NCBI GenBank assembly: GCA_965221775.1
Contig: CBDCSU010000005.1
Location: 416,001 to 480,000 of the forward strand
DNA: 64,000 nucleotides
Direction: 5' to 3'
DNA from: Candidatus Latescibacterota bacterium
Lineage (GTDB): Bacteria; Latescibacterota; UBA2968; UBA8231
Under the pieces are notes generated by a model, which was not told the DNA's origin, searched no databases, and worked only from the letters and a program-made list of their open reading frames with translations. The stretch's first letter is position 1. Each line of letters opens with the position of its first letter. This document shows, piece after piece, positions 15,587 through 30,875 of the stretch. The translations under genes were made by a program, and so were the position numbers.

Positions 15587-16384
15587 TCAGGAGGTGGAGG
15601 GGCTGCGCTCGGGGCTGGGGTTGAGGAAGGCGGGCCTCAGGGTGCGCAGCTTGTCGCGCAGGCGCGCCGCCTCCTCGAAGTTCTCGGCTTCCACGGCCAC
15701 GTGGAGGTCGCGCTCCAACTGCTCCTTCTGAGACAGGGGACGCTCCTTCTCCAGTTCCTCGTACCAGTCGGACAGGAAGGTCAGCTCGGGGCAGTCCTCG
15801 TCCATCAGGTCCTCCTCCCCCTCCCACTCGCCGAGGAACTGCTCGATGCGGTCGATGCCGCGCTGCACGTGGCGCAGGGCGGCGTCGTAGTCCTTGGCCT
15901 CGAGGGCGGCCATGGCCCGGGCCCGGGCCTGCATCATCACCGCGTGGGGCAGGTACTGCTCGAAGTACCACTTGACCTCGTCGCTGTCGGCGTGCTCGTG
16001 GACGAGGTCGAAGATGGCCAGGTTGTGCCCGGTGTCGCGCTCCACCCCCTCGTAGTCCTCCAGGAAGAACAGGGCGAGATAGCGCTGGTAGTACTGCCAG
16101 GCTTCCTGGAAGAGGTCCTCGCAGCTCTGCTCGTCGAGCTCGGGGCCGCTTCTGGGCAGCGATCCGGGGCGGCTGCGCAGGGACTGGCGGAAGTGATGGA
16201 GGAAGGACTCGGCGCCGTGGGGCCGGTGTCCGTCGGGGCGGCCGGAGACGTCGAGCTGGAGGATCCCCATGTCGATGCGGATCTGGATCTTCTCCGTGCC
16301 GTCCCGGGCGGTGATCCGGCGGGCGATGAACTCGTCCGGGTCGAAGGGCCACGAATTGAGCAGGTCACCGATGTCGTATTTCAT
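15587..16384 (-). CDS. UvrB/UvrC (UVR) motif-containing protein
   Basis: C-terminal LERDLHVAVEAENFEEAARLRDKLR UVR coiled coil. N-terminal IQIRIDMGILQL..GRPDG.RP block. Confidence 0.82.
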   Translation of the reverse strand: MKYDIGDLLNSWPFDPDEFIARRITARDGTEKIQIRIDMGILQLDVSGRPDGHRPHGAESFLHHFRQSLRSRPGSLPRSGPELDEQSCEDLFQEAWQYYQRYLALFFLEDYEGVERDTGHNLAIFDLVHEHADSDEVKWYFEQYLPHAVMMQARARAMAALEAKDYDAALRHVQRGIDRIEQFLGEWEGEEDLMDEDCPELTFLSDWYEELEKERPLSQKEQLERDLHVAVEAENFEEAARLRDKLRTLRPAFLNPSPERSPSTS

Positions 16385-16459: not shown

Positions 16460-17992
16460 CTAGCGCCGGGAGACCTTGATGCTGCCCACCGCGACGCCGA
16501 CGACGAGGGCGATGACGGCGGCGATGATCAGGGCGTTGCGGATCACCCGGGCGCGCTGCTCGACGCGGATGGTGATGTCCTTCTCCTGGGCCTCGATGCG
16601 CTCCGGGCCCTCGTACCCGGCGGCCTCGACGCGCACGTCGTACTCGCTGACGCCGATGCCGGCGGGCTGCACGAGGGTGATGTTCACCGGCTCCTTCTCC
16701 CCCGGCAGGATGCGGTCGATCGTGTCGGGCTCGGAGGACCAGGTCCAGTCGAGGGGCGGGGTCAGCACCAGGTGCACCCTCTCCACCTCCAGGGTCCCGG
16801 TGTTGAGCAGGTCGACGCGCACCTTCACCTCCTCGCCCGTGCGCACCTCCTGGTAGCGGTTGGCGATGAGGGTCTCGAGGGCGCCCCGGCCCCGGGGGAT
16901 GAGCTCGAAGCGCTCCTTGTTCCCGGGGATCGTGTTGATCTCCTCCAGGGGGATGGGGCCGCGGTGCTTGCGGTTCAGCTCGGCGATGCGCTCGAAGCCG
17001 GCGGCCTCGGTGACGAAGACGTAGAACTCGATCGTCTGGTCGACGTAACCGCGGCTGAGCTTCTCGGGGATCTGCAGCTCCAGCTCCAGCTGCTGGCGCG
17101 TCACCTCCTCGCTGAACTTCACCTGCGTGAGGTTGGCGTTGGTCCCCGGGTCGACGAAGGCGGGGGTGATCTCCCGCGGCAGGTTGACCAGGGCCAGGCG
17201 GAAGGTCTTCTCGTCCTCGGCGAGGCGCTCGAGGATGAGGTCGAAGTTGACCCGCGTGTTGAGGTCGCCCTCCTGGGAGAACTGGACCGAGTTGATCGTC
17301 GGCAGGTCCTGGCTCGACTCCCGGCGCATGACGATCTGCAGCAGCTCCTTGCTGCCGTCGAGGTAGGTGAGGTCGACGACCACGTCCTCGTAGTCCTGGA
17401 GCAGCCGGAAGGTGAGCCGCGTACGCTCGCCCAGGGGCAGGGAGGGCACGAGGATCTCGTAGGGCTCGGCGACGATCGTTCCGAGGCGCTCGGTGAGGGA
17501 GACCTTGAGGTTCTGGATCTCCAGCAGCGGCCGGATCTGGCTCTCGTCGCGGTCGGGGTTGAGAGACAGGGCCTGGCCGAGCTGGGAGGCGTTCTCCAGG
17601 ACGATATCGACCTGGCGGCGGCCGTCGAGGGTGCGGTACTTCCGCGCCTCGCGGATGGTGACGCGGGTGGCGTCCTTGAGGAACTCCAGGCGCGTGCGGT
17701 CGAGCTGGAAGACCGCCTCGCTGTACTTCAACTCCGACTGCAGGAAGGCGCGCCGGGCTTTGTTCAGGCTCTCGAGGGTTTCGATCTTCTCGTCGTAGAG
17801 CTCCTGGATGATGTCGTACTCGCTCTTGTTGTTGTCCATCTCCAGCTTGCGGCTCTCCACCTCCCACTGCGCCTTGCGCAGCTTGATGTCGTAGAGGCGC
17901 TGCTCCTTGGTGCGCAGGTCCTTGGTCGCCCCCAGGGGCGAGGCCAGGAGGCCGAGGAGGAAGACGCCCAGGCAGGCGCGGGCGGCGGTCAT
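16460..17992 (-). CDS. Secreted, C-terminally anchored protein with N-terminal coiled-coil hairpin and NEW3/COG1470-like Ig domains (paralogue 2)
   Basis: Signal peptide; helical segment; beta-rich domains ending VDLLNTGT...PPLDW...ILPGEKEPV; C-terminal TM helix followed by SRR. Confidence 0.8.
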   Translation of the reverse strand: MTAARACLGVFLLGLLASPLGATKDLRTKEQRLYDIKLRKAQWEVESRKLEMDNNKSEYDIIQELYDEKIETLESLNKARRAFLQSELKYSEAVFQLDRTRLEFLKDATRVTIREARKYRTLDGRRQVDIVLENASQLGQALSLNPDRDESQIRPLLEIQNLKVSLTERLGTIVAEPYEILVPSLPLGERTRLTFRLLQDYEDVVVDLTYLDGSKELLQIVMRRESSQDLPTINSVQFSQEGDLNTRVNFDLILERLAEDEKTFRLALVNLPREITPAFVDPGTNANLTQVKFSEEVTRQQLELELQIPEKLSRGYVDQTIEFYVFVTEAAGFERIAELNRKHRGPIPLEEINTIPGNKERFELIPRGRGALETLIANRYQEVRTGEEVKVRVDLLNTGTLEVERVHLVLTPPLDWTWSSEPDTIDRILPGEKEPVNITLVQPAGIGVSEYDVRVEAAGYEGPERIEAQEKDITIRVEQRARVIRNALIIAAVIALVVGVAVGSIKVSRR

Positions 17993-19512
17993 CGCCGGCT
18001 GATCCGGACGCTGGCCACGCCGATGCCGACGACGAGGAGGACGAGGATGCCGATGAGGATGACGTTGCCGGCGATGTTCGATCGCGCCCCCACGTGGATG
18101 GTCAGGTTCTTCTCCAGGGACTCCACGTTCTCGTTGCCCACCTGGCCCTGGGCCTCGACGCCGAGCTCGTAGTTGCCCACGGCGATGTCCGGCGGCGGCC
18201 GGGCGACGATGTCGAGGGGCGCGCGCTCGTCGGGCTCGAGGCGCTTGATGAGCAGGGGCGTCACCTCCTCCTGCCACTGGTAGGGCAGGTCGAGGGCGGC
18301 CTTGATGTTCTGCACCGCCACGCTGCCGCGGTTGAGGAACTCCACGCGGATGCGCAGGTCCTCGCCGGTCTGGATCTCGCGGTAGGTGTTGGAGACCAGG
18401 ACCTCGAGCTTGCCGATGCCCTTGGGGATGAGCTCGAGCTTGACGTAGTTGGCCCGCAGCCCCTGGAGTTCTTCCTCCGGCACCGGGTCGTCGCCGAAGC
18501 GCGCCCGGATGGCGTTGATGCGGGCGTACTCGCGCGGCTCGGTGACCAGGGCGAAGAACGGGCGCGCCAGGCCCACCAGGTTGCGGTCGAGCTTCTCGGG
18601 GATCTCGAGGACGAGGCCGAGGGTGTCCTTGGACTTGTTCTCGTCGAACTTCACCTGCGTGACCTTGGCGCCGGCGTTGCGGAAGGAGAAGTCGATCTTG
18701 CGCGGCAGGCCGAGGACGGCGAGGGCGAAGCTGCGCTCCTCGTCGGAGAGGCGCTCGAGGATGAGGTCGAAGCGCACGTCCTGCTGCAGCTCGCCCGACT
18801 GCGAGAACTGGGCGGAGTTGATGCTCGGCAGGTTCTCGCGCCCGCCCTTGCGCAGGGTGACGGGGATGCTCTCCAGGGTGTCGAGGTAGCCGAGGACCAC
18901 GGCCACCGCCTCCTCGTCGCGCAGGAGGCGGAAGGTCAGGGTGTGCCGCTGGCCCACGTCGAGGGCGGGGACGCGGGTCTCGTAGGGCTCGCCCACGAGG
19001 GGCCCGTTCTTGAGGGAGACGAAGATGTTCTCCACGCGCAGCAGGATCCGCAGGTCCTCCTCGGTGAGGGAGGGATCGACGACGAGGGCATCGCGCGTGT
19101 CGGAGGCGTTCTCCACGACGATGTCGACCATGCTCTTGCCGTCGGGGCTCTTGTACTTGCGGGCGTCGCGCACGACGATGTGGGTGGCGTTGCGCAGCAG
19201 CTCGAGCTTGGTCTCCTCCAGCAGGATCTCGGCCTCCTCCTTCTGCAGCCGCGCCTCGGCGTAGCTGTTCTGCGCCTGCTTGTAGGTGAGGAGGGGCACG
19301 AATCCCGAGTCGTGGAGGGCCCTTGTGAGGCGCAGCTCCTCCAGGGCCTGGTCGAGGCTGGTGCGGCGCTGCTCGAGCTGCAGCTGGCGCTCGTCGAGCT
19401 GCAGCTTGTCGAGCTGCTGCTGGCGCGTGAGGCCGGCCCCCGCGGGGGCCGCGGCGGCGTCCGCGGCGGCGGCGAGCAGAAAGCCGGCCAGAAGCGCGAA
19501 CCTCGCCCTCAT
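17989..19512 (-). CDS. Secreted, C-terminally anchored protein with N-terminal coiled-coil hairpin and NEW3/COG1470-like Ig domains (paralogue 1)
   Basis: Colinear with the downstream gene (ARKY, IVVENAS, EPYE, LPSINSAQFSQ.G, FDLILERL, TQVKF, ELIPKG); C-terminal TM helix followed by SRR. Confidence 0.8.
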   Translation of the reverse strand: MRARFALLAGFLLAAAADAAAAPAGAGLTRQQQLDKLQLDERQLQLEQRRTSLDQALEELRLTRALHDSGFVPLLTYKQAQNSYAEARLQKEEAEILLEETKLELLRNATHIVVRDARKYKSPDGKSMVDIVVENASDTRDALVVDPSLTEEDLRILLRVENIFVSLKNGPLVGEPYETRVPALDVGQRHTLTFRLLRDEEAVAVVLGYLDTLESIPVTLRKGGRENLPSINSAQFSQSGELQQDVRFDLILERLSDEERSFALAVLGLPRKIDFSFRNAGAKVTQVKFDENKSKDTLGLVLEIPEKLDRNLVGLARPFFALVTEPREYARINAIRARFGDDPVPEEELQGLRANYVKLELIPKGIGKLEVLVSNTYREIQTGEDLRIRVEFLNRGSVAVQNIKAALDLPYQWQEEVTPLLIKRLEPDERAPLDIVARPPPDIAVGNYELGVEAQGQVGNENVESLEKNLTIHVGARSNIAGNVILIGILVLLVVGIGVASVRISRR

Positions 19513-20906
19513 TCGACGTACCCCATCAGCCGCCGCAGCTCGGCCTGGCGCGAGATGTAGGTCTCCTGGTTCTGGAACAGGACCTCCTGGGCGGTGAAGA
19601 ACTGCTGGCGGAAGTTCTCCAGCACCGCCTCGTCCACCTGGCCCCCCTTCTCCTGCACCTGCTGCTTGATCTCCAGGCGGCGGCGGGCGATGACCACGCT
19701 CTTCTCCTGCAGGCGCTGGGTCTCCTCGGCCTCGAGCATCGACTGGTAGGCCTGGCGCACGCCCAGCTCCACCGAGGCCCTCAGGTCGCGCAGCTGCACC
19801 TGCAGGCCCTGCAGCCGGGCGCGCTCGAGGCCCTCGCGGCCCAGGCGGGCGCCGCCCTCGAAGATGGGGATGCGCGCCTGCACGCGGGCCGACCAGGTCG
19901 CCTCGCCCTCGTCCTCGGGCGGGTCCGCCTCGTCGAGGCTGAGGCCGGTCTCCACGCCGACGCCCCAGGTGCCGCCCTCGCGGCCGACGCTGAGGCCCGC
20001 CCGGCGGCGGCCGTCGCCGACGCCGGCGTCGGCGCTCAGGTCGGGGGCGTACTCCCAGCCGATCTCGCGCAGGACGCGCCGCTGCTCGTCGAGGAGCTGC
20101 TCGGTGACGCCGATCTCCACGTCGTGAACGAGGGCCCGGCCCACGGCCTCGTCCTGGTCGACGGCGAACGGTTCCAGCTCGCCGCCGAGGCGCAGGTCGA
20201 GGCCGATGGGGCGGCCGATGAGGCGCAGGAGCTCCATCTTGTCGCGCAGCTGCTCGCGCCGGATGCGGTTGATGCTCAGCTCCTCCTCCAGGACGTTGAG
20301 CTCGGCCTGCAGCTTCTGCTCCTCGGAGGCGAGGCGCTTCTCGAAGCGGGCCTGCTGGCGCGCGAAGGTGGCCTCGAAGTTCTGCCGCGAGGCGACGCGC
20401 AGGGCGATCTGCTGGTCCTTGAGCAGGATCAGGTGGTAGAGCTCCCAGACGCGGGAGCTGACCTCGTAGACCTTGTCCTGGTAGTCGAAGACGGCCTTGC
20501 GCAGATCGGCGCGCAGCTGGATCTCGGAAGCGGCGTCGGGGCCGAACTCGAAGAGGCGCTGCTGGAGCAGCAGCTCGCTGGCCAGCTGGTCGCGGGTGGT
20601 GGCGTCGCCCTCGGCGCGCAGGGCGTCGTAGCCGGCGGTGAGGCTCACCCGCGGCATCAGGCGGGAGCGGACGACGACGGCGTCGCTCTCGACCTCCTCG
20701 ATGCGCTTGCGGGCGCCGATCAGCTCGCGGTTGTGGGAGAAGGCCGCGGCGAGGCAGTCGGCCAGGCCGAGGGGCGCCGCCCGGGCGGCGGAGTCGGGCA
20801 CCGCCGGAGGCCCCTCCGCGACGGCGGGACCGAGGGCCGCGGCCACTCCCGCGATGACAACCGCCGTCCGCAGGTGGAGGGCCCGGGACGGCGAAAAGGT
20901 GAGCAA
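19509..20906 (-). CDS. TolC family outer membrane efflux protein
   Basis: LGLADCLAAAFSHN, two OEP-like helical repeats, ARIPIFEGG, VRQAYQSML, ELRRLMG. Start uncertain (TTG at 20906 or 20912). Confidence 0.85.
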   Translation of the reverse strand: MLTFSPSRALHLRTAVVIAGVAAALGPAVAEGPPAVPDSAARAAPLGLADCLAAAFSHNRELIGARKRIEEVESDAVVVRSRLMPRVSLTAGYDALRAEGDATTRDQLASELLLQQRLFEFGPDAASEIQLRADLRKAVFDYQDKVYEVSSRVWELYHLILLKDQQIALRVASRQNFEATFARQQARFEKRLASEEQKLQAELNVLEEELSINRIRREQLRDKMELLRLIGRPIGLDLRLGGELEPFAVDQDEAVGRALVHDVEIGVTEQLLDEQRRVLREIGWEYAPDLSADAGVGDGRRRAGLSVGREGGTWGVGVETGLSLDEADPPEDEGEATWSARVQARIPIFEGGARLGREGLERARLQGLQVQLRDLRASVELGVRQAYQSMLEAEETQRLQEKSVVIARRRLEIKQQVQEKGGQVDEAVLENFRQQFFTAQEVLFQNQETYISRQAELRRLMGYVE

Positions 20907-20943
20907 AATCAATAGGTTCCGTAGGGTCTGGCAGATCGCGCTT

Positions 20944-21080: not shown

Positions 21081-21803
21081 ATGCTCGAGATCATCGACAT
21101 GACCAAGCACTACGGCGACGTGCACGCCGTGAACGACCTCACCCTGACCATCGAGCCGGGCGAGATCTTCACCATGCTCGGCGCCAACGGCGCCGGCAAG
21201 ACGACCACCCTCATGGTGGCCCTCGGGTTCACCGAGCCGACGGCCGGGACGGTGAAGATCTGCGGCGTCGACGTCACGCGCGACCCGCTCGAGGCCAAGC
21301 GCCACGTGGCCTACGTGTCGGAGAACGTCATGCTCTACGGCAACTTCACGGCCCGCCAGAACCTCGAGTTCTTCACCAAGCTCGGGGGCCGCAAGCAGGT
21401 GGAGGCCTCGGAGTACGACCAGGTCATGGACCGCGTCGGCCTGCAGCGCGACGCCTTCGACCGGCGGGTGAAGGGGTTCTCCAAGGGCATGCGCCAGAAG
21501 CTCGGCATCGCCATCGCCATCATGAAGAACGCCGAGGTGATCCTCCTCGACGAGCCCACCTCGGGACTGGACCCCAAGTCGGGCGCCGAGTTCCTGCAGC
21601 TGCTGGCCGAGCTGCGCGAGGAGAACAAGGCGATCTGGATGACGACCCACGACATCTTCCGGGCCAAGCAGATCGCCGACCGCGTGGGCATCATGGTCGA
21701 GGGCAACCTGGTGAAGATCTTCACCCGCGACGAGCTCGGGCAGGAGGACCTGGAGTCGATCTACGTCGAGTTCGTGAGCCAACCCGCCGAGCAGGCGGCC
21801 TGA
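21081..21803 (+). CDS. ABC transporter ATP-binding protein (ABC-2/CcmA-like)
   Basis: Walker A GANGAGKTT, signature FSKGMRQK, Walker B ILLDEPTSGLDP, H-loop TTH. Confidence 0.96.
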   Translation: MLEIIDMTKHYGDVHAVNDLTLTIEPGEIFTMLGANGAGKTTTLMVALGFTEPTAGTVKICGVDVTRDPLEAKRHVAYVSENVMLYGNFTARQNLEFFTKLGGRKQVEASEYDQVMDRVGLQRDAFDRRVKGFSKGMRQKLGIAIAIMKNAEVILLDEPTSGLDPKSGAEFLQLLAELREENKAIWMTTHDIFRAKQIADRVGIMVEGNLVKIFTRDELGQEDLESIYVEFVSQPAEQAA

Positions 21804-21909: not shown

Positions 21910-23295
21910 ATGCTCCTGCGACTGATCCGCAAGGAAGTCCTGCACAACATCCTGAGCTTCCGCTTCGCCGTCACCTACGGCCTGCTCTTCGTCCTCGTCC
22001 TGCTCGCCGTCTTCCTCATGGGCAACGAGCACCGTCAGCGCATGGAGACCTATACCCGGCAGGAGTCCCAGGCCCGCGACCGCCTGGAGGAGCTGGCCGG
22101 GATGCAGGACGCCACCGAGCAGTTCCGGCAGATCCAGCGCGAGGACTTCGCGGGGGTACGTCAGCCGGGGGCGCTGGCCGTCCTCGCCCGCGGTCTCGAG
22201 GGCAGCCTGCCGGCGCAGATCTCCTCCGGCGGCTGGTTCACCACGCACAGCTCCGAGGACCGCCTGGGGCGCAACATCCTCCTCGAGATCTTCCAGGCGC
22301 CCGACTTCGCCTACGTGGTCAACATGGTCCTGAGCCTGCTGGCCCTGCTCTTCGTCTTCGACTCCGTCTGCGGCGAGAAGGAGCGGGGCACCCTCAAGCT
22401 CCTGCTGTCGGGCTCGGTCCCCCGGGACACGGTGCTGCTGGGCAAGTGGGTGGGCGGCTACCTCTCCATCGCCGGGCCCTTCGCCGCCGCCGCCGCCGCC
22501 GGCTTCCTCTACCTCTCCCTCTCCGGCTCCCTGCCGCTCGAGACGGAGGTCGTCTCCCGTTTCGCCGCGATCCTCGCCGTCTCCTTCCTCTATATATCCG
22601 CCTGCTTCAGTCTCGGTCTGCTGATCTCCACCCTCGCCCACCGCGGCGCCACGGCCCTGCTCATGGCGCTGCTGGTGTGGATCGGCTGGATCCTGGTGGT
22701 GCCCAACCTGGCGCCTGTCGTGGCCCGCCTGGCGGCGCCGGTGCCGTCGCGCCAGGTGATCGACGCCGAACAGCAGGCCATCGACCGCGAGGCGGAACTG
22801 CTGATGGGGGCCATCCGCAAGAGCAAGGTCTACGGCGACCGGCAGCAGATGGAGCGCATCCAGGAGGAGACGGAGCAGCGCAAGCGCAAGCTCGACGGCT
22901 TCTACAAGGACCGCATGTCGCGCCAGACCTCCCTGAGCCAGAACCTGGCGCGCCTGTCGCCCTCGGCCAGCTATCTCCTCGCCGCCACCCGCCTCGCCGG
23001 CACCGGCCCCGACCTCTTCGCCCACTTCTCCGACGCTGTCGAGCGCTTCCACGGCGCCCACGACGACTTCCGCAGCCAGATGTACGGCAACGTCTCCTGG
23101 ACGCGGGGGCCCGATCCGGACATCCAGGACGAGGACTGGTTCGACCCCGACGACGTGCCCCGGCTGTCCATGTTCTCCGAGAGTCTCTCCGAGGCCTTCG
23201 ACGGGGCCCTCTTCGACATCCTGCTGCTGGTCGTCTTCAACGTGCTGTTCTTCCTGCTGTCGTACGTCTTCTTCCTCCGATACGACGTCACCTGA
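21910..23295 (+). CDS. ABC-2 type (NosY/COG1277-like) permease with large periplasmic loops
   Basis: LIRKE start, FDSVCGEKERGTLKLLLS.SVPR..LLGKW.GG, C-terminal FLRYDV. Confidence 0.9.
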   Translation: MLLRLIRKEVLHNILSFRFAVTYGLLFVLVLLAVFLMGNEHRQRMETYTRQESQARDRLEELAGMQDATEQFRQIQREDFAGVRQPGALAVLARGLEGSLPAQISSGGWFTTHSSEDRLGRNILLEIFQAPDFAYVVNMVLSLLALLFVFDSVCGEKERGTLKLLLSGSVPRDTVLLGKWVGGYLSIAGPFAAAAAAGFLYLSLSGSLPLETEVVSRFAAILAVSFLYISACFSLGLLISTLAHRGATALLMALLVWIGWILVVPNLAPVVARLAAPVPSRQVIDAEQQAIDREAELLMGAIRKSKVYGDRQQMERIQEETEQRKRKLDGFYKDRMSRQTSLSQNLARLSPSASYLLAATRLAGTGPDLFAHFSDAVERFHGAHDDFRSQMYGNVSWTRGPDPDIQDEDWFDPDDVPRLSMFSESLSEAFDGALFDILLLVVFNVLFFLLSYVFFLRYDVT

Positions 23296-23315: not shown

Positions 23316-24749
23316 GTGCTGCTGCACATCGTCCGCAAGGAACTCCTCGACCAGCTGCTGTCCCTGCGCTTCGCCATCGCCTGCGGCGTCTGCCTCATCG
23401 TCTTCGTCCTCAGCGCCGTGGTGCTCACGCGGGACTACCGCGAGGGCCTGTCGACGTACAACATGAACCGCGTCATGCACCGCAACGAGCTGCAGCAGCG
23501 CGACCAGATCTGGAGCCTGAACGAGGGAGTCACCGTCGACCGGCCCCTGAACCTCATGAACACGCTGGTGCGCGGCCTGTCGAAAGAGCTGACCGAGAGC
23601 GTCCGCGTGCAGCCCGGGAACCGCCTCGACTTCCCCGAGGGCTGGGAGCAGAACCCGGTGCTTCCCCTGTTCCCGCCGGTGGACTTCGTCTTCATCGTCG
23701 GCATCATCATGAGCCTCCTGGCCCTGGCCTTCGCCTACGACGGGGTCTCGGGCGAGGCCGAGACCGGCGTCCTCAAGCTGCTCATGTCGTACAGCGCGCC
23801 CCGCGACCTGGTGCTCCTCGGCAAGTGGCTCGGCGGCTACCTGGCCCTCATCGCGCCCTTCACCGTCTCCTTCGTCCTCGCCCTGCTCGTGGTTCTGCTG
23901 TTCCCCGACGTGCAGCCCGATACCGAGAGCTCGCTGGCCCTGCTCGCCCTCTACGGCCTCGCCCTGCTCTACCTGGGCGCCGTGTACAGCCTGGGCCTGC
24001 TCGTCTCCTGCCGCACCCGGCTGGCCTCGACCTCGATCACCGTCCTCCTGCTGTTGTGGGTCTCCCTGATCCTGGCGGTGCCGAACATGGCGCCGTACGT
24101 GGTCAGCCAGGTGGTGCCGATCCCCTCCGCCGAGGAGGTGGACCGCGAGAAGCAGGCCCTGCAGAGGGAGCAGCAGCAGCGGTTCCAGGAGATCATCGCC
24201 GAGGAGCAGGAGCGGCTCGGCCGCGACAACGTGTGGGGCGACGAGTCGGTGCAGGAGCGGTTCCGGGTGGCGGCGGAGGAGTCCCAGGCGGAGATACAGA
24301 AGATCGAGGACAGTTTCCGCACCCAGGTGGCGGGGCAGACGCGGCTCTCCGGCATTCTCGCCCGCATGTCTCCCCTGACCTCCTTCAACCTCGCCGCCTT
24401 CGACCTGGCCGCCGCCGGCATCGCCCAGGAGGAGGAGTGGGTGGCGAGCCTGGAGGCCTTCGGCGACACCTGGTCGGCGTACTCGGAGGAGAAGCAGCGC
24501 GCCTACAGGGAGTGGATCCATGAGCAGATGGCCGCCTCCCCCAGCGGCGGCGTGACCATCACGTCGCAGGACATGGAGCGGTTCAACCAGGACCTGGATC
24601 TGTCCGACGCGCCGCGGTTCAGCTTCTCCCACATGGGCGTTTCCGACCGCCTCGCCGCGGTCTACGTCGACCTGGCCTTGCTGGCCCTGTGGAACGTCGC
24701 CTTCTTCATGCTCGCCTACCTTTCCTTCCTGCGCTACGACATCAACTGA
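23316..24749 (+). CDS. ABC-2 type permease, paralogue
   Basis: GTG start, IVRKE, YDGVSGEAETGVLKLLMS..PRD..LLGKWLGG, C-terminal FLRYDI. Confidence 0.9.
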   Translation: MLLHIVRKELLDQLLSLRFAIACGVCLIVFVLSAVVLTRDYREGLSTYNMNRVMHRNELQQRDQIWSLNEGVTVDRPLNLMNTLVRGLSKELTESVRVQPGNRLDFPEGWEQNPVLPLFPPVDFVFIVGIIMSLLALAFAYDGVSGEAETGVLKLLMSYSAPRDLVLLGKWLGGYLALIAPFTVSFVLALLVVLLFPDVQPDTESSLALLALYGLALLYLGAVYSLGLLVSCRTRLASTSITVLLLLWVSLILAVPNMAPYVVSQVVPIPSAEEVDREKQALQREQQQRFQEIIAEEQERLGRDNVWGDESVQERFRVAAEESQAEIQKIEDSFRTQVAGQTRLSGILARMSPLTSFNLAAFDLAAAGIAQEEEWVASLEAFGDTWSAYSEEKQRAYREWIHEQMAASPSGGVTITSQDMERFNQDLDLSDAPRFSFSHMGVSDRLAAVYVDLALLALWNVAFFMLAYLSFLRYDIN

Positions 24750-24797: not shown

Positions 24798-25727
24798 ATG
24801 GCCCATCACGAGTTCGTCCCCGGCCACTACCACAACACCCTCGGCTGGCACGAGCCGGTCCTGGAGGTCGCCCCGGGGGACTCGGTCTCGACGACCACCG
24901 TCGACGCCCGCGGCCGGGACCGCGACGGCGAGCAGGTGGCGGTCCGGGGCAATCCCCAGACCGGTCCCTTCCACGTCACCGGCGCCGAGCCCGGAGACGC
25001 CCTGGCGGTCACCCTCGACCTGGTGCGGCCGAACCGGCCCTGGGGCTTCACCGCCACCGCCGTGGCGCCCAACGTGCTCGACCCCGGGTTCCGGCCGCGC
25101 TTCGACGACGAGATCGAGGTCACCCGCTGGGCGGTGGACGCCGACGCCGGCACCGTCCGCCTCAGCGAGCCCGAGGGGCCCCTGTCGCGGCTCTCCCTGC
25201 CCCTGGACCCCATGGTCGGGTGCTTCGGCGTGGCCCCCGAGAGGGGCCAGGCGATCTCCACGGCCACCTCCCACCGCCACGGCGGCAACATGGACTACCG
25301 GGGGTTCCGCCAGGGGGTGACCGTCTGGTTCCCCGTCTTCGCGCCGGGGGCCCTGTTCCACATCGGCGACGGCCACGCCGTGCAGGGCGACGGCGAGATC
25401 GTCGGCACCGGGGTGGAGATCTCCTTCGACGTGCGCTTCACGCTGGACCTGGTGAAGGGCTCGTCCATCGGCTGGCCCCGGGCCGAGGACGACACCTGGC
25501 TGATGACGGCGGGCAACGCCCGGCCCCTGGACCAGTGCGTGCAGCACGCCACCACCGAGATGCTGCGCTGGCTGGAGACCGACCACGGCCTCGACGCCCG
25601 CACCGCCCACCTGCTCCTCGGCCAGGCGGTCGCCTACGACGTGGGCAACATCTACGACCCGGCGTACACCATGATCTGCAAGGTGAAGAAGAGCCACCTG
25701 AAGGCGATCCGCGGGGAGGCCGGATGA
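24798..25727 (+). CDS. Acetamidase/formamidase family protein
   Basis: NPQTGPFHVTGAEPGD, HGGNMD, GDGHAVQGDGEIVGTGVE. Confidence 0.93.
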   Translation: MAHHEFVPGHYHNTLGWHEPVLEVAPGDSVSTTTVDARGRDRDGEQVAVRGNPQTGPFHVTGAEPGDALAVTLDLVRPNRPWGFTATAVAPNVLDPGFRPRFDDEIEVTRWAVDADAGTVRLSEPEGPLSRLSLPLDPMVGCFGVAPERGQAISTATSHRHGGNMDYRGFRQGVTVWFPVFAPGALFHIGDGHAVQGDGEIVGTGVEISFDVRFTLDLVKGSSIGWPRAEDDTWLMTAGNARPLDQCVQHATTEMLRWLETDHGLDARTAHLLLGQAVAYDVGNIYDPAYTMICKVKKSHLKAIRGEAG

Positions 25728-26711: not shown

Positions 26712-27725
26712 ATGTCCCCTGCCCTTCTTCTCCTCCTCCTGACCCTGGTGCCCGGCGCGCTCCTCGGCCAGGAGCGGCCACCGACGCCGGTCATCGTCGC
26801 CGAGGTCCTCGAACAGCCCCTCGTCGAGGATCTCTCCTTCGTCGGGCGCATCCTGCCCGTGCGTTCCAGCCGGGTCGCCGCCGAGACCGAGGGCAAGGTG
26901 GTGCAGCGGTTCAGGGACGCCGGCCAGACCGTGCGCGCCGGCGACCCCCTCTTCGCCCTGGCCAACGATCCGCTCCAGGCGGCGCTGGAAGAAGCGGAGG
27001 CCGATCTCGCGCTGAGGCGCTTCATCCACGACGGCAGCCGCCGGTTGCGCGCCACCGACTCGGTCTCGGAGCAGGACCTGCGCGTCAACGCCTTCGAGCT
27101 GGCGCGCGCCGAAGCCCGGCTGAGCGGCCTCCAGGCCCAGGTGGAGAACCTCCTCGTCCGCGCCCCCTTCTCCGGGCACATCGTCCGCACCTCCACCGAG
27201 GTGGGAGAGTGGGTCGGCCGCGGCGGCGAGATCGCCCAGGTGATCTCCATCGACACGGTGCGCGTCATCGTCGAGGTGCCCGAGCACCATGTGCCGCAGC
27301 TGGCCTTGGGGGACACCGCCGCCATCCTCGTCGACGCCCTCGGCGGCGATCCGGTCCACGGCCTCGTAACCGTCATCTCCGCCGAAGGCTACGCCGCCTC
27401 GCGCACCTTCCCGGTCGTCGTCGAGGCCGCCAATCCGGCAGGCCGCATGCGCAGCAACATGTCGGCGCGGGTGCGCTTCCGTATCGCCCAGGCGACGGCA
27501 TCGCTCCTGGTGCACAAGGACGCCCTGGTCTCCGGTCCTCGGGGGCAGGTGGTGTACCTCGCCCGCGACGGCAAGGCCCTCGGCCGCCCCGTCGAAGCCG
27601 GGCTGGCGCACCAGGGTTACGTGGCCGTCACGGGCGACCTCGCGCCCGGCGATCTGGCCGTGGTGCGCGGCAACGAGCGCCTCCGCGACGGCCAGGCGGT
27701 GCGCATCATCCGCCGGCAGCCGTAA
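26712..27725 (+). CDS. RND efflux periplasmic adaptor (membrane fusion protein)
   Basis: Signal peptide, VAAETEGKV lipoyl half, VRAPFSG, SRTFPV, GDLAVVRG. Confidence 0.92.
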   Translation: MSPALLLLLLTLVPGALLGQERPPTPVIVAEVLEQPLVEDLSFVGRILPVRSSRVAAETEGKVVQRFRDAGQTVRAGDPLFALANDPLQAALEEAEADLALRRFIHDGSRRLRATDSVSEQDLRVNAFELARAEARLSGLQAQVENLLVRAPFSGHIVRTSTEVGEWVGRGGEIAQVISIDTVRVIVEVPEHHVPQLALGDTAAILVDALGGDPVHGLVTVISAEGYAASRTFPVVVEAANPAGRMRSNMSARVRFRIAQATASLLVHKDALVSGPRGQVVYLARDGKALGRPVEAGLAHQGYVAVTGDLAPGDLAVVRGNERLRDGQAVRIIRRQP

Positions 27726-27731
27726 GCCGCC

Positions 27732-30700
27732 ATGCGCCTGATCGCCACAGCCATCCAGCGGCCCGTCAGTGTCACCGTCGGCGTGCTCCTGGTGGCGCTC
27801 TTCGGCCTGATCTCCCTCTTCCGCATCCCCGTTCAGCTCACCCCCGACATCGACCGGCCGATCATCACCGTCTCCACGGTGTGGCCGGGCGCCAGCCCGG
27901 AAGAGGTCGAGCAGGAGATCGTCCAGCGCCAGGAGGAACAGCTCAGGAGCGTCGAGGGACTGGTGCTGATGACCAGCGAGAGCAACGACAGCCGCGGGGT
28001 CGTCTCCCTCGAGTTCAACGTCGGCGTCGATCCGGACGCGGTGATGCTGCTGGTCTCCAACAAGCTCGACCAGGTCTTCGGCTATCCCCTCGACGCCGAG
28101 CGGCCGGTGATCTCGGCCGGCGGCACCGGGCCGAGCGGGGCGATCACCTGGATCATGCTCCAGCCCCTGCCGGACCGCGGCGATCTGGATATCGAGCGCT
28201 ACCGCGACTTCGCCGAGGAGGTCATCAAGACCGCCCTCGAGCGCGTGCCCGGCGTCTCCCGGAGCGACATCTACGGCGGCTACGACCGCCAGCTCCAGGT
28301 CATCGTCGATCCCCGGGCCATGGCCGCGCGCCAGATCACCGTTCAGGACCTGGCCCGGGCCCTGGCCCGCGAGAACGCCAATACCAGCGCCGGGACCTTC
28401 GACGAGGGCAAGCGCCGCTACATCGTGCGCACCGTCGGTCAGTACCAGCAGCCCGGCGACATCGAGCAGGTGGTCGTCCGCTCGGCCGACGGCACCCGGG
28501 TCACCGTCGGCGAGATCGCCCGCACCCGCCTCGGCTACGTCCGCACCGTGGCCTCCGTGCGCCAGAAGGGCCAACCCGCCATCGCCATCAACGCCCGGCG
28601 CGAGACCGGGGCCAACGTCCTCGAAGTCATGGACGGCATCCGCCGCACCATCGGCCAACTCAACGAGGGGCCCCTGGCCCGCGAGGGCCTCTACCTCACC
28701 CAGGTCTACGACGAGACCGACTACATCGACAGCGCCATCGGCCTGGTGCGCTCCAACATCCTCATCGGCGGCACCCTGGCGGTGATGGTGCTCTTCATCT
28801 TCCTGCGCACCGTCAGCTCGGTGGCGATCATCGCCACCGCCATCCCGATCTCGATCGTCGGCACCTTTCTGGCCATGTGGCTCCTGGGCCGCAACATCAA
28901 CGTCATCAGCCTGGCGGGGATGAGCTTTGCCGTGGGCATGGTCATCGACAACGCCATCGTCGCCCTCGAGAACATCTTCCGCCACCAGCAGATGGGGAAG
29001 AGCCGCGCCCGCGCCGCCCTCGACGGGGCCACGGAGGTCTGGGGGGCGCTCCTGGCCAGCACCCTGACCACGGTGGCCATCTTCCTGCCCATCGTCTTCG
29101 TCGAGGACGAGGCCGGTCAGCTGTTCCGCGACATCGCCATCGCCGTCTCCTGCTCGGTGGTGCTCAGCCTGATCGTGGCCGTCTCCGTCATCCCCAGCCT
29201 GGCCAACAAGATCCTCGGCGGCGACAGACGCGGCGGGGGCCGGCTGGCCGCCTGGGGCGAAGGGGTGCGGACCTTCATCGCCCGGAGCGTCTTCCGCATC
29301 AGCGGCAGCACGGTGCTGCGCCTGGGGGTCATCGCAGGGCTGATCGGCCTCTCGGTGGCCATCGCCTGGAACCTGCTGCCCAAATCGGAGTACCTGCCCA
29401 CGGGCAACCGCAACCTGATCTTCGGCATCGTCCTGCCGCCCCCGGGGTACAACCTCGACGAGCTGATCCAGGTGGGCCAGACCGTCGAGGACGTCCTGCG
29501 CCCCCACTGGGAGGCGGCCTCGGACCCCGACGGCCCCCAGGCCCGAGCCCTGCCGGGACCGCCGATCGCCAACATGTTCTTCGTCGCCTTCGGCCGCTCC
29601 GCCTTCATGGGAGCGCGCTCGACCGAGCCGGAGCGGGTGCGCGAGCTGATCCCGATCATCCAGGGGCCGGTCCTGGGCGGGGTGCCGGGGACCTTCGCCG
29701 TCGTGCAGCAGTCGAGCCTCTTCCAGCGCGCCACCGGCAGCGGGCGCTCCATCGACATCGAGATCACCGGGCCCGATCTGGACCACCTCGTCGGGCTGGG
29801 GGGACGGGTATTCGGCCAGGTCCGGCAGGTCGTGCCCGGCGCCCAGGCCCGCCCCATTCCCAGCCTCGACCTGGGCAATCCGGAAGTCCGCATCCTCCCC
29901 GACCGCGTGCGCGCCGCCGACCTGGGCCTGTCGGCGCGCGACATCGGCTCGGCGGTCAATGCGCTGATGGATGGCGCCATCGTCGACGGCTACCAGTTCC
30001 AGGGCGAGGAGATCGACCTGGTGCTGCGGGGCGAGGAGGACTGGTTCCGCACCCAGGATATCGCCGCCCTGCCGATCTACACCCCGCGGGGCCAGCTGGT
30101 GCCGCTGAGTGCCGTGGCCCGCGTCGAAGTGACCACCGGCCCCGAGCAGATCAACCACATCGAGCGCGACCGGGCGATCACCGTCCGGGTCATCCCGCCG
30201 GAGACCGTTCCCCTGGAGACGGCCCTCGACGCGCTGCGGACCGAGATCGTCCAGCCCCTCGTCGATTCCGGCGATCTGGCCCCGCCCTACCAGATCCAGC
30301 TCTCCGGCTCGGCCGACGACCTGCGGCGCACCCGCCAGGCCTTGCAGTGGAACTTCCTGCTGGCCCTGGTGATCACCTACCTGCTGATGGCCGCCCTCTT
30401 CGAGAGCTTCCTCTACCCCTTCGTCATCATGCTCAGCGTGCCCCCGGCGCTGGCGGGCGGCATCCTCGGGCTGGAGGTCGTCAACCGGACGCTGACCTAT
30501 CAGCCCCTCGACATCCTCACCATGCTCGGCTTCGTCATCCTCATTGGCGTGGTCGTCAACAACGCCATCCTCATCGTCCACCAGACGCTCAACATCCTGC
30601 GGGAGGCGCCCGAGACCCCGCTCGGAGAGGCGATCCACGACGCCGTCTTCAGCCGCGTGCGGCCGATCTTCATGTCCACGATCACCAGCGCCCTGGGGAT

Positions 30701-30875
30701 GCTGCCGCTCGTCGTCTTCCCCGGCGCCGGGTCCGAGCTCTACCGGGGCCTGGGCAGCGTCGTCATCGGCGGCCTGCTGCTGTCCACCTTGTTCACCCTC
30801 TTCCTGGTGCCGACCTTCCTCAGCCTGGCGATGGATCTGAGAGCCTGGGTCGGCCGCGCCGGGAAGGCGATGTAG
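27732..30875 (+). CDS. RND efflux permease (AcrB/MdtB-like)
   Basis: 1047 aa; IQRPV, PGASPEEVE, GMVIDNAIVALENI, FESFLYP, GVVVNNAIL, SRVRPIFMST. Confidence 0.96.
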   Translation: MRLIATAIQRPVSVTVGVLLVALFGLISLFRIPVQLTPDIDRPIITVSTVWPGASPEEVEQEIVQRQEEQLRSVEGLVLMTSESNDSRGVVSLEFNVGVDPDAVMLLVSNKLDQVFGYPLDAERPVISAGGTGPSGAITWIMLQPLPDRGDLDIERYRDFAEEVIKTALERVPGVSRSDIYGGYDRQLQVIVDPRAMAARQITVQDLARALARENANTSAGTFDEGKRRYIVRTVGQYQQPGDIEQVVVRSADGTRVTVGEIARTRLGYVRTVASVRQKGQPAIAINARRETGANVLEVMDGIRRTIGQLNEGPLAREGLYLTQVYDETDYIDSAIGLVRSNILIGGTLAVMVLFIFLRTVSSVAIIATAIPISIVGTFLAMWLLGRNINVISLAGMSFAVGMVIDNAIVALENIFRHQQMGKSRARAALDGATEVWGALLASTLTTVAIFLPIVFVEDEAGQLFRDIAIAVSCSVVLSLIVAVSVIPSLANKILGGDRRGGGRLAAWGEGVRTFIARSVFRISGSTVLRLGVIAGLIGLSVAIAWNLLPKSEYLPTGNRNLIFGIVLPPPGYNLDELIQVGQTVEDVLRPHWEAASDPDGPQARALPGPPIANMFFVAFGRSAFMGARSTEPERVRELIPIIQGPVLGGVPGTFAVVQQSSLFQRATGSGRSIDIEITGPDLDHLVGLGGRVFGQVRQVVPGAQARPIPSLDLGNPEVRILPDRVRAADLGLSARDIGSAVNALMDGAIVDGYQFQGEEIDLVLRGEEDWFRTQDIAALPIYTPRGQLVPLSAVARVEVTTGPEQINHIERDRAITVRVIPPETVPLETALDALRTEIVQPLVDSGDLAPPYQIQLSGSADDLRRTRQALQWNFLLALVITYLLMAALFESFLYPFVIMLSVPPALAGGILGLEVVNRTLTYQPLDILTMLGFVILIGVVVNNAILIVHQTLNILREAPETPLGEAIHDAVFSRVRPIFMSTITSALGMLPLVVFPGAGSELYRGLGSVVIGGLLLSTLFTLFLVPTFLSLAMDLRAWVGRAGKAM

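Follow-up and report, generated by a model that had tools for sequence, protein, structure and literature searches.

Paired NEW3-domain proteins with an MFP-type alpha-hairpin: a candidate C-terminally anchored periplasmic adaptor beside an ABC-2 transporter and a TolC-like channel

Introduction

In the excerpted text of PMC4446572 and PMC8277102, the adaptors of tripartite export pumps follow a single design, in which an N-terminal anchor is combined with lipoyl, beta-barrel and membrane-proximal domains and the alpha-hairpin is an insertion; the canonical membrane fusion proteins (MFPs) are anchored in the inner membrane at the N-terminus, by a transmembrane helix or a lipidated Cys (PMC4446572, excerpt). 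The present work deals with two adjacent paralogous genes, A and B, on the minus strand of a 64,000-nucleotide stretch of a Candidatus Latescibacterota genome (GenBank assembly GCA_965221775.1, contig CBDCSU010000005.1, positions 416,001 to 480,000; hereafter the window, positions being counted from its first letter). Their products combine an N-terminal alpha-hairpin akin to that of MFPs with a stalk of immunoglobulin-like (Ig-like) domains and a C-terminal transmembrane (TM) helix. It is moderately probable that a heteromeric, TriAB-like periplasmic adaptor of new architecture, with A and B as its subunits, bridges an ATP-binding cassette (ABC) transporter of the ABC-2 type to a TolC-like channel.

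By function, the nearest described system is MacA-MacB-TolC (PDB 5nik), where a protein with an alpha-hairpin likewise bridges an ABC transporter and a channel of the TolC family; the hairpin of MacA is matched by the profile of the present family and in a fold search (see below), and the tip motif of MacA, termed RLS, recurs in the wider family. MacA has an N-terminal anchor, lipoyl, beta-barrel and membrane-proximal domains and a hairpin inserted in the lipoyl domain, whereas in A and B the hairpin is N-terminal and is followed by three Ig-like domains and the C-terminal TM helix. In MacB, an ABC protein with four TM helices, the nucleotide-binding domain is fused; this locus instead encodes the ATPase separately, together with two six-TM ABC-2 permeases that differ from each other and contain DUF3526.

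For the presence of two adaptors, the nearest system is TriA/TriB of TriABC-OpmH (PDB 6vej, fused TriAB), in which paralogous adaptors stand side by side and both are retained. TriAB, in both halves, is the top PDB match of the broad family profile, and the lateral packing modelled for A and B is comparable; TriA and TriB are, however, canonical four-domain MFPs working with a resistance-nodulation-division (RND) transporter, and only the hairpin is common to them and A/B. The favoured adaptor assembly is a trimer of adaptor dimers (PMC4446572, excerpt).

Two further comparisons concern the remainder of the architecture. The NEW3 family (PF10633), named after a domain of alpha-galactosidase-type enzymes, shares with A and B the membrane-proximal beta-sandwich; in contrast to those enzymes, A and B lack any enzyme domain, and have in addition a hairpin, two more sandwiches and a TM anchor. 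KpsE-KpsMT of capsule export (PDB 8tsh) likewise joins an ABC-2-type transporter with a membrane-anchored periplasmic protein of long helices. A co-polymerase is built from an alpha/beta base with two TM helices and pairs with an outer-membrane protein of OPX type, not of TolC type; unlike KpsE, A and B have one C-terminal TM helix, a stalk of Ig-like domains and a partner of TolC type.

No description of such an Ig-stalk, C-terminally anchored adaptor was found in the literature search. The excerpted main texts of PMC4446572 and PMC8277102 (supplements excluded) contain no Ig-like adaptor and only N-terminal anchoring, and the words "C-terminal transmembrane" near periplasmic adaptor in the excerpt of PMC8277102 concern RND repeats. 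A term search of a 2026 adaptor review gave no C-terminal transmembrane, Ig-like, non-canonical, atypical, ABC-2 or YbhG adaptor. No literature on DUF3526 was found, and among titles and abstract beginnings on the NEW3 domain none dealt with efflux.

Results and Discussion

Hairpin of A and B

A family alignment of 71 diverse relatives (21–47% identical to A) and a narrower profile of 38 close relatives were compared with 177,635 PDB sequences. The narrower profile gave as best match the hairpin of MexJ (E 9.5e-5), followed by MacA/MexA, MexA, 4l8j and ZneB, all at their hairpins. With the 71-relative profile, TriAB was matched in both halves (E 3.2e-4), then MexJ (5.6e-4), MacA (1.7e-3 to 2.2e-3), MexA (0.011) and AcrA (0.15–0.27); the 26 matches at E ≤ 1 comprised 17 MFPs, 7 Ig-like domains at the NEW3 part and 2 others, and all N-terminal matches at E ≤ 0.1 were MFPs.

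A six-frame profile search of the organism's own 5.36 Mb genome returned, besides A and B, just three places (E 1.8e-8, 1.5e-5 and 1.7e-4). All three are HlyD_D23/HlyD_3 proteins matched in the hairpin columns only; two of them precede an AcrB-type gene, the flank of the third lying outside the scan. The MFP encoded in the window itself (26712-27725) gave no match at E ≤ 1e-3 in this search. The three matched HlyD/AcrA-family MFPs are akin to A and B in the sequence of the hairpin, but carry HlyD_D23, HlyD_3 and Biotin_lipoyl_2 domains, none of which is present in A or B.

Direct comparison by hhalign of the 71-sequence family with 5 canonical MFPs gave a probability of 95.2% (E 2.9e-8, 57 columns), in register at the tip; in the control, the same family against 8 TolC-like proteins of this operon type gave 5.8%. 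The two arms of the hairpin measure (22,23) residues in 43 of the 71 relatives and (29,30) in 27, one being discordant, i.e., the heptad change is paired in 70/71; paired variation in heptad length is a known property of adaptor hairpins (PMC4446572, excerpt). A TolC-family origin of the hairpin, raised by weak Pfam matches to the outer-membrane efflux protein (OEP) family (A residues 45-106 against PF02321: 16.3 bits, under the cut-off of 22), was rejected because hhalign against the 8 OEPs gave only the 5.8% quoted.

From these comparisons the hairpin is taken to be specifically of MFP type and not a generic coiled coil, and at the level of sequence the kinship is counted as shown. The original prediction, made from the letters of the window, had proposed a helix-turn-helix following the signal peptide in both paralogues and a likeness of its tip to that of MFP adaptors. 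Both peptides quoted there are present (A residues 53-90, B residues 52-89), the helix-turn-helix is borne out by the modelled hairpin of A and by the paired heptad change in the relatives, and the likeness to MFPs by the hhalign result, the PDB matches and the three MFPs of the same genome. A generic coiled coil lacking MFP similarity, named there as the contrary outcome, is not what the profile searches found. The range proposed, 17680-19430, spans A residue 28 to B residue ~104. Of the comparisons suggested alongside, the profile comparison favours MFPs; fold searches do not separate MFPs from other helical hairpins.

Tip of the hairpin

In MacA, AcrA, MexA and HlyD the tip that binds TolC is described as carrying the RLS motif, RxxxLxxxxxxS, with T as last residue in HlyD (PMC3391258, excerpt). 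At the aligned tip columns, 30 of the 71 relatives have R, 63 have L, 44 have G at +4 and 55 have S/T; the full RxxxLxxxxxx[S/T] is present in 24/71 and L together with S/T in 52/71, the motif being located at the structural tip of the hairpin. In a second phylum the motif is perfect in 20/20 fetched proteins, e.g., RQQELFDHKLIS.

The corresponding residues here are L62, L66, G70 and P73 in A, and I61, L65, K69 and T72 in B. Among 37 A-type sequences L66 is kept in 37/37 and G70 in 36/37, S/T in 13/37 with mostly A or P in its place; among 31 B-type sequences L65 and T72 are both kept in 31/31. The tip "R..L...G.IS" of the original prediction accordingly stands as a consensus of the family and is only partly held in A and B themselves, where R is absent.

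Domain architecture and anchoring

The model of A (AlphaFold2, 38-sequence alignment, mean predicted local distance difference test (pLDDT) 87) shows a signal-peptide helix 2-20; hairpin helices 30-68 and 74-109 (pLDDT 94–97; 94–98 with the trimmed model included); three beta-sandwiches, at 112-220, at 230-325 with two helices (326-350) behind it, and at 354-475; and, closing the chain, the TM helix 480-506. A trimmed model of residues 26-228 (pLDDT 88) was concordant with that of the whole protein. In A the hairpin begins at residue 30, immediately past the signal peptide, and the N-terminal lipoyl half-domain that precedes the hairpin in canonical adaptors is therefore impossible. Neither Biotin_lipoyl nor any HlyD family (including HlyD_D23 and HlyD_3) was detected by Pfam in A or B at E ≤ 0.01, and the anchor of A and B is C-terminal, at the opposite end from that of MFPs. 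As three defining features of MFPs are absent, namely the lipoyl domain, the barrel and membrane-proximal domains and the N-terminal anchor, A and B are not to be filed as MFPs; they are NEW3-domain proteins carrying an MFP-type hairpin.

Hydropathy of A and of B revealed one N-terminal and one strong C-terminal hydrophobic segment each (in A, the C-terminal peak is 3.06, Kyte-Doolittle, 19-residue window), and both proteins terminate in SRR; among the full-length relatives listed, a C-terminal TM segment with [S/T/A]RR is recurrent. Judging from its sequence, the N-terminal segment would be a signal peptide that is cleaved off; no lipobox Cys was seen in the cleavage region of A or B. A lipoprotein anchor for B through Cys7 was considered and rejected, this Cys preceding the hydrophobic core and having no lipobox context. 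The proposed stalk of Ig-like domains with C-terminal TM helix and SRR is confirmed by the AlphaFold2 model, Foldseek and hydropathy, and the inverted topology relative to canonical adaptors holds as well, because the TM helix is C-terminal and the stalk separates it from a hairpin standing right after the signal peptide.

NEW3 (PF10633) was matched in A with 44.3 bits (residues 381-455) and in B with 44.4 bits (cut-off 24.4), and in all 71/71 relatives; it is the sole Pfam family above cut-off in both A and B. A match of A to the aminotransferase family PF00155 (residues 18-115; 21.2 bits, cut-off 19.7) was judged spurious. NCBIfam has no entry that fits A or B, and in the protein atlas nothing but clusters of their own family came up, with automatic NEW3 names, the public name being "NEW3 domain-containing protein". 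Foldseek of the whole model of A gave tandem Ig-like stalks (integrin legs, ciliary Ig-like proteins) and otherwise generic Ig-like or mixed folds. The first sandwich (D1) matches FnIII-like and Ig-like domains of glycosidases, the NEW3 part gave PDB profile matches to Ig-like domains of sialidase and GH20, and CARDB is matched in 27/71 family members.

In four family representatives (P0114, P0119, P0120, P0250; 718-892 aa) the profile match falls in 2-4 stretches. The sequences of these longer representatives suggest extra stalk domains or duplications, hence adaptors of differing height.

Duplication and predicted packing of A and B

Aligned from end to end, A and B have 40% identity (E 4e-121). 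A tree built with FastTree from 137 sequences places the B-type clade (support 100) as sister to the A-type clade, their joint node having support 94, and both clades are nested in the long-hairpin branch. As the clades are sisters, this arrangement indicates a single old duplication after which both copies were kept.

The complex was modelled 1:1 from A 26-478 and B 24-481, each with its own alignment. A score of 0.64 was obtained in all three runs, the best of 3 controls reaching 0.00; in calibration, 0.64 was reached by 116/157 solved complexes and 2/215 mismatched pairs, these counts being approximate with custom alignments. At least 77% of contacts were common to the runs, and the pLDDT of the partner was at least 81. 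The modelled interface is parallel and in register: the descending helix of A (75-110) packs with the ascending helix of B (24-61), and D1 with D1. The model supports side-by-side binding of A and B, with the lateral contact expected of neighbours in an adaptor ring.

The mature N-terminus of B (D25-L33) is near-invariant, lies inside the modelled A-B interface and touches there the base of helix 2 of A. At 17890-17920 (minus strand; B residues 25-34) D-L-R-T-K-E-x-R-L is invariant in 31 B-type sequences; the A-type sequences keep L-T-x-E-Q-x-L.

New from this window are the conserved A/B pair, the single duplication indicated by the tree, the interface supported by the model and the loss of the motif R in both proteins.

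Genomic context and distribution

Gene context was collected for 36 related loci from species-representative genomes, of which 33 are informative, with 1300 nt or more on the upstream side. In 32 of the 33 the gene immediately upstream is TolC-like (31 by tblastn, L034 by Pfam; none in L036), and the A-then-B tandem is present in 33/36 (L035 is cut by a contig end; L034 and L036 are single-copy). In the window the OEP gene, A and B are joined by ATGA stop/start overlaps (OEP stop with the ATG of A, A stop with the ATG of B); the gene coupling OEP-A-B is conserved. Of the 36 loci, 21 include an ABC ATPase (identity ≥ 50%) and 18 the permeases. At L034 (37% identical) the OEP gene, one family gene, ATPase, permease and permease follow one another on a single strand, and in the distant single-copy relatives (L034, L036 and 20 further loci) the family gene immediately precedes those of an ATPase and a pair of permeases.

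In the phylum of L036 the family occurs in 47/151 sampled genomes, nearly always as one copy. At L036 and in the 20 fetched regions of its phylum (L056-L075) the gene order is fixed: a histidine kinase and response regulator, both divergent, precede a PDZ protein, after which come the family gene, the ATPase and the two permeases; the permeases are of the DUF3526 ABC-2 type, with Pfam confirmation for the scanned genes. In the phylum of the window the family was found in 67/151 sampled genomes; in its taxonomic family, in 43/63 genomes, mostly as two adjacent copies, the other families having mostly one copy. In total, 1310 clusters at 50% identity match with E ≤ 1e-3, and 227 with E ≤ 1e-30.

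Four genomes of the window's taxonomic family (G208, G236, G277, G287) have extra family copies far off on the same contig, which may be separate second systems.

Proposed assembly

We infer the ring, its stoichiometry, the docking to the channel, the contact with the permeases and the export function as follows. After cleavage of the signal peptide, A and B would be held in the inner membrane by the C-terminal helix with SRR in the cytoplasm. Three Ig-like tiers would rise from the membrane as the lower conduit, NEW3 being the lowest and standing beside the large periplasmic loops of the permeases, and the N-terminal MFP-type hairpins, directed at the outer membrane, would form the upper barrel. 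Side by side, A and B would touch through helix 2 of A on helix 1 of B and D1 on D1, and would alternate in a ring that encloses the heterodimeric ABC-2 transporter (probably 3+3, by analogy with TriA/TriB). Contact of the hairpin tips with the co-translated TolC-like trimer, at its periplasmic end, would then connect the ATP-driven transporter with the channel. With ~1.5 Å per helical residue, ~40 Å per Ig-like domain and a TolC periplasmic barrel of 100 Å, the ectodomain would measure ~170-180 Å, enough to reach a TolC-type tip across the periplasm.

Several observations weigh against this assembly. The arginine of the tip motif, critical in MacA, AcrA and HlyD, is absent at its column in every A-type and B-type sequence (0/37 and 0/31); with R absent in A/B and S/T mostly replaced in the A-type, the canonical tip chemistry is lost in the lineage of the window. 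A and B are devoid of lipoyl, beta-barrel and membrane-proximal domains, residues 112-475 of A being three Ig-like sandwiches, and there is no HlyD-type or lipoyl family among the 25 most-matched of the 47 Pfam families found in the 71 relatives at E ≤ 0.1. Weak OEP matches were obtained in 9/71 members (best E 9.1e-4, single-sequence Pfam scans). In Foldseek of A 26-228 the first MFP (TMexC) appeared at rank 43, with a root-mean-square deviation of 24. Among 48,161 chains ranked by VIA-align, the top three were HlyD, EmrA and AcrA (Z 10.8–10.6), and MacA had Z 9.9; SMC, F-BAR and designed hairpins were within 1 Z unit of the MFPs, and this ranking is not counted either way because MFPs were tied with unrelated hairpins. 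No TolC-like gene was detected among the scanned flanks of 7/20 second-phylum loci, the neighbours being partial except at one locus. Finally, a canonical MFP-RND pair further along the plus strand (see below) may share the TolC-like channel of the operon, since no separate outer-membrane factor gene was seen between that pair and the OEP gene of this operon.

Alternative explanations

It is unlikely that A and B serve the ABC-2 transporter alone, as accessory subunits forming a periplasmic cage or substrate-handling collar comparable to the polysaccharide co-polymerases of KpsMT, in which the hairpin would serve oligomerisation and no channel would be docked. That the constant neighbour across phyla is the ABC-2 transporter, with no TolC-like gene among the scanned genes of the 7 second-phylum loci, speaks for such a role, as do the absence of the RLS arginine in A and B and the position of the modelled A-B interface on the flanks of the hairpins; KpsMT-KpsE is also among the helical fold matches (Z 8.8, rank 49), which is not discriminating. 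A collar of this kind does not call for a hairpin that specifically matches those of MFPs, tip register included, nor for the TolC-binding tip motif kept in the wider family, nor for a TolC-like gene upstream in 32/33 loci and start/stop-coupled in the window. Moreover, many classical pumps have tolC located elsewhere in the genome, which is counted against this explanation.

The start/stop overlaps and the co-occurrence with ABC-2 genes in at least two phyla argue for one machine and make it quite improbable that A and B are a carbohydrate-binding or cell-envelope scaffold adjacent to efflux genes by synteny without physical contact. For a scaffold one may cite that NEW3 and CARDB are common in glycosidases and surface proteins (PF10633 is the sole joint family, CARDB occurs in 27/71), that the NEW3 part matches sialidase and GH20 Ig-like domains, and that the public names read "NEW3 domain-containing protein". 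A and B are, however, without a catalytic domain, a beta-sandwich alone is uninformative on sugar binding, and the MFP-type hairpin would be left unexplained. That this hairpin is a generic antiparallel coiled coil, its MFP likeness arising from the leucine-rich and charge-rich composition of heptads, is highly improbable. The Z values of SMC, F-BAR and designed hairpins within one unit of those of MFPs would be accounted for in this way, as would the lack of an MFP hairpin model among the 25 most-matched Pfam families; but although coiled coils are numerous in the set of 177,635 PDB sequences, every N-terminal match at E ≤ 0.1 was to an MFP, the six-frame search of the genome gave three MFPs only, the coiled-coil-rich OEP control reached 5.8% against 95.2%, and the motif sits at the structural tip.

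Beyond the bridging adaptor preferred here, a wider proposal is offered tentatively, as possible and somewhat short of probable. The MFP hairpin may be a portable TolC-docking module grafted on an unrelated, C-terminally anchored chassis of three Ig-like domains, giving a second independent class of periplasm-spanning adaptors that would serve the heterodimeric ABC-2 transporters of several little-studied phyla; in the lineage of the window the ring might then be an obligate A3B3, the diverged tips (A L...G, B L......T, no R) reading two non-equivalent grooves of a co-evolving TolC-like trimer.

Features of the locus

Coordinates are collected in Table 1. The ATPase and the two permeases are divergent from the OEP-A-B operon, on its upstream side. 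The start of the OEP gene is provisional (TTG at 20912 or 20906), and the OEP matches TIGR01844 (TolC family) with E 2.3e-20, yet under the model cut-off. For the ATPase the nearest NCBIfam models are of the DrrA, GldA and NodI types, all under cut-off. Permease 2 is a paralogue of permease 1 (~32% identity, tblastn cross-matches); both have two long loops between hydrophobic segments, the second loop of permease 1 being DUF3526. The product of the UVR-motif gene gave a weak McsA-like NCBIfam match and has no signal peptide or TM segment by eye; such a gene is downstream of the pair in 26/36 related loci.

Table 1: Features of the locus (positions in the window; A and B residues as numbered in the proteins).
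Feature	Position	Strand	Description
UVR-motif protein	15587..16384	-	265 aa; C-terminal UvrB/UvrC motif PF02151, E 1.1e-7; ~75 nt past B
Paralogue B	16460..17992	-	510 aa; architecture as in A; ATG at 17992
B hairpin, ~residues 29-108	17669..17908	-	placed by alignment to A
B tip segment, residues 61-72	17777-17812	-	L65, T72 invariant in the B-type sequences
Paralogue A	17989..19512	-	507 aa; signal peptide, alpha-hairpin, three beta-sandwiches, C-terminal TM, SRR
A C-terminal TM helix, residues 480-506	17995..18075	-	AlphaFold2 helix; final R of SRR follows
A stalk	18088..19179	-	D1 112-220; D2 230-350, including two helices; D3 = NEW3 domain 354-475
A hairpin, residues 30-109	19186..19425	-	80 residues; AlphaFold2 helices
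A tip segment, residues 62-73	19294-19329	-	aligned tip columns
TolC-like outer-membrane efflux protein (OEP)	19509..20912	-	~467 aa; PF02321, E 5.7e-30, two stretches
ABC transporter ATPase	21081..21803	+	240 aa from ATG at 21081; PF00005, E 1.1e-30
ABC-2 permease 1	21910..23295	+	461 aa; PF12679, E 1.8e-32; PF12040 DUF3526, E 8e-9
ABC-2 permease 2	23316..24749	+	477 aa from GTG at 23316; PF12679, E 2.3e-24; DUF3526, E 7.6e-5

At 26712-30875 (plus strand), 2 kb past the permeases, a canonical HlyD_D23 MFP (337 aa; 26712-27725) is followed by an AcrB-family RND transporter (1047 aa); a formamidase-like gene (24798-25727) separates the ABC-2 permeases from this pair. The G+C content of the window is ~70%, which gives rise to long spurious open reading frames overlapping the real genes: between 12469 and 25697, on both strands, there are open frames as long as 1037 aa that lie either antisense to these genes or in another frame. 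The mechanical reading frames for B (605 aa) and OEP (821 aa) are over-extended 5' of the true starts.

Conclusion

If A and B are an adaptor, they represent a second adaptor design having only the hairpin in common with the first, and would thus reveal the part truly required for engagement of a TolC-type channel; they would also be a natural test in which the channel-opening tip is presented from a different scaffold. The A/B pair would offer a natural heteromeric case comparable to TriAB. A role would be given to a large family now labelled "NEW3 domain-containing" or hypothetical, and the uncharacterised DUF3526 ABC-2 transporters would be tied to export across the outer membrane.

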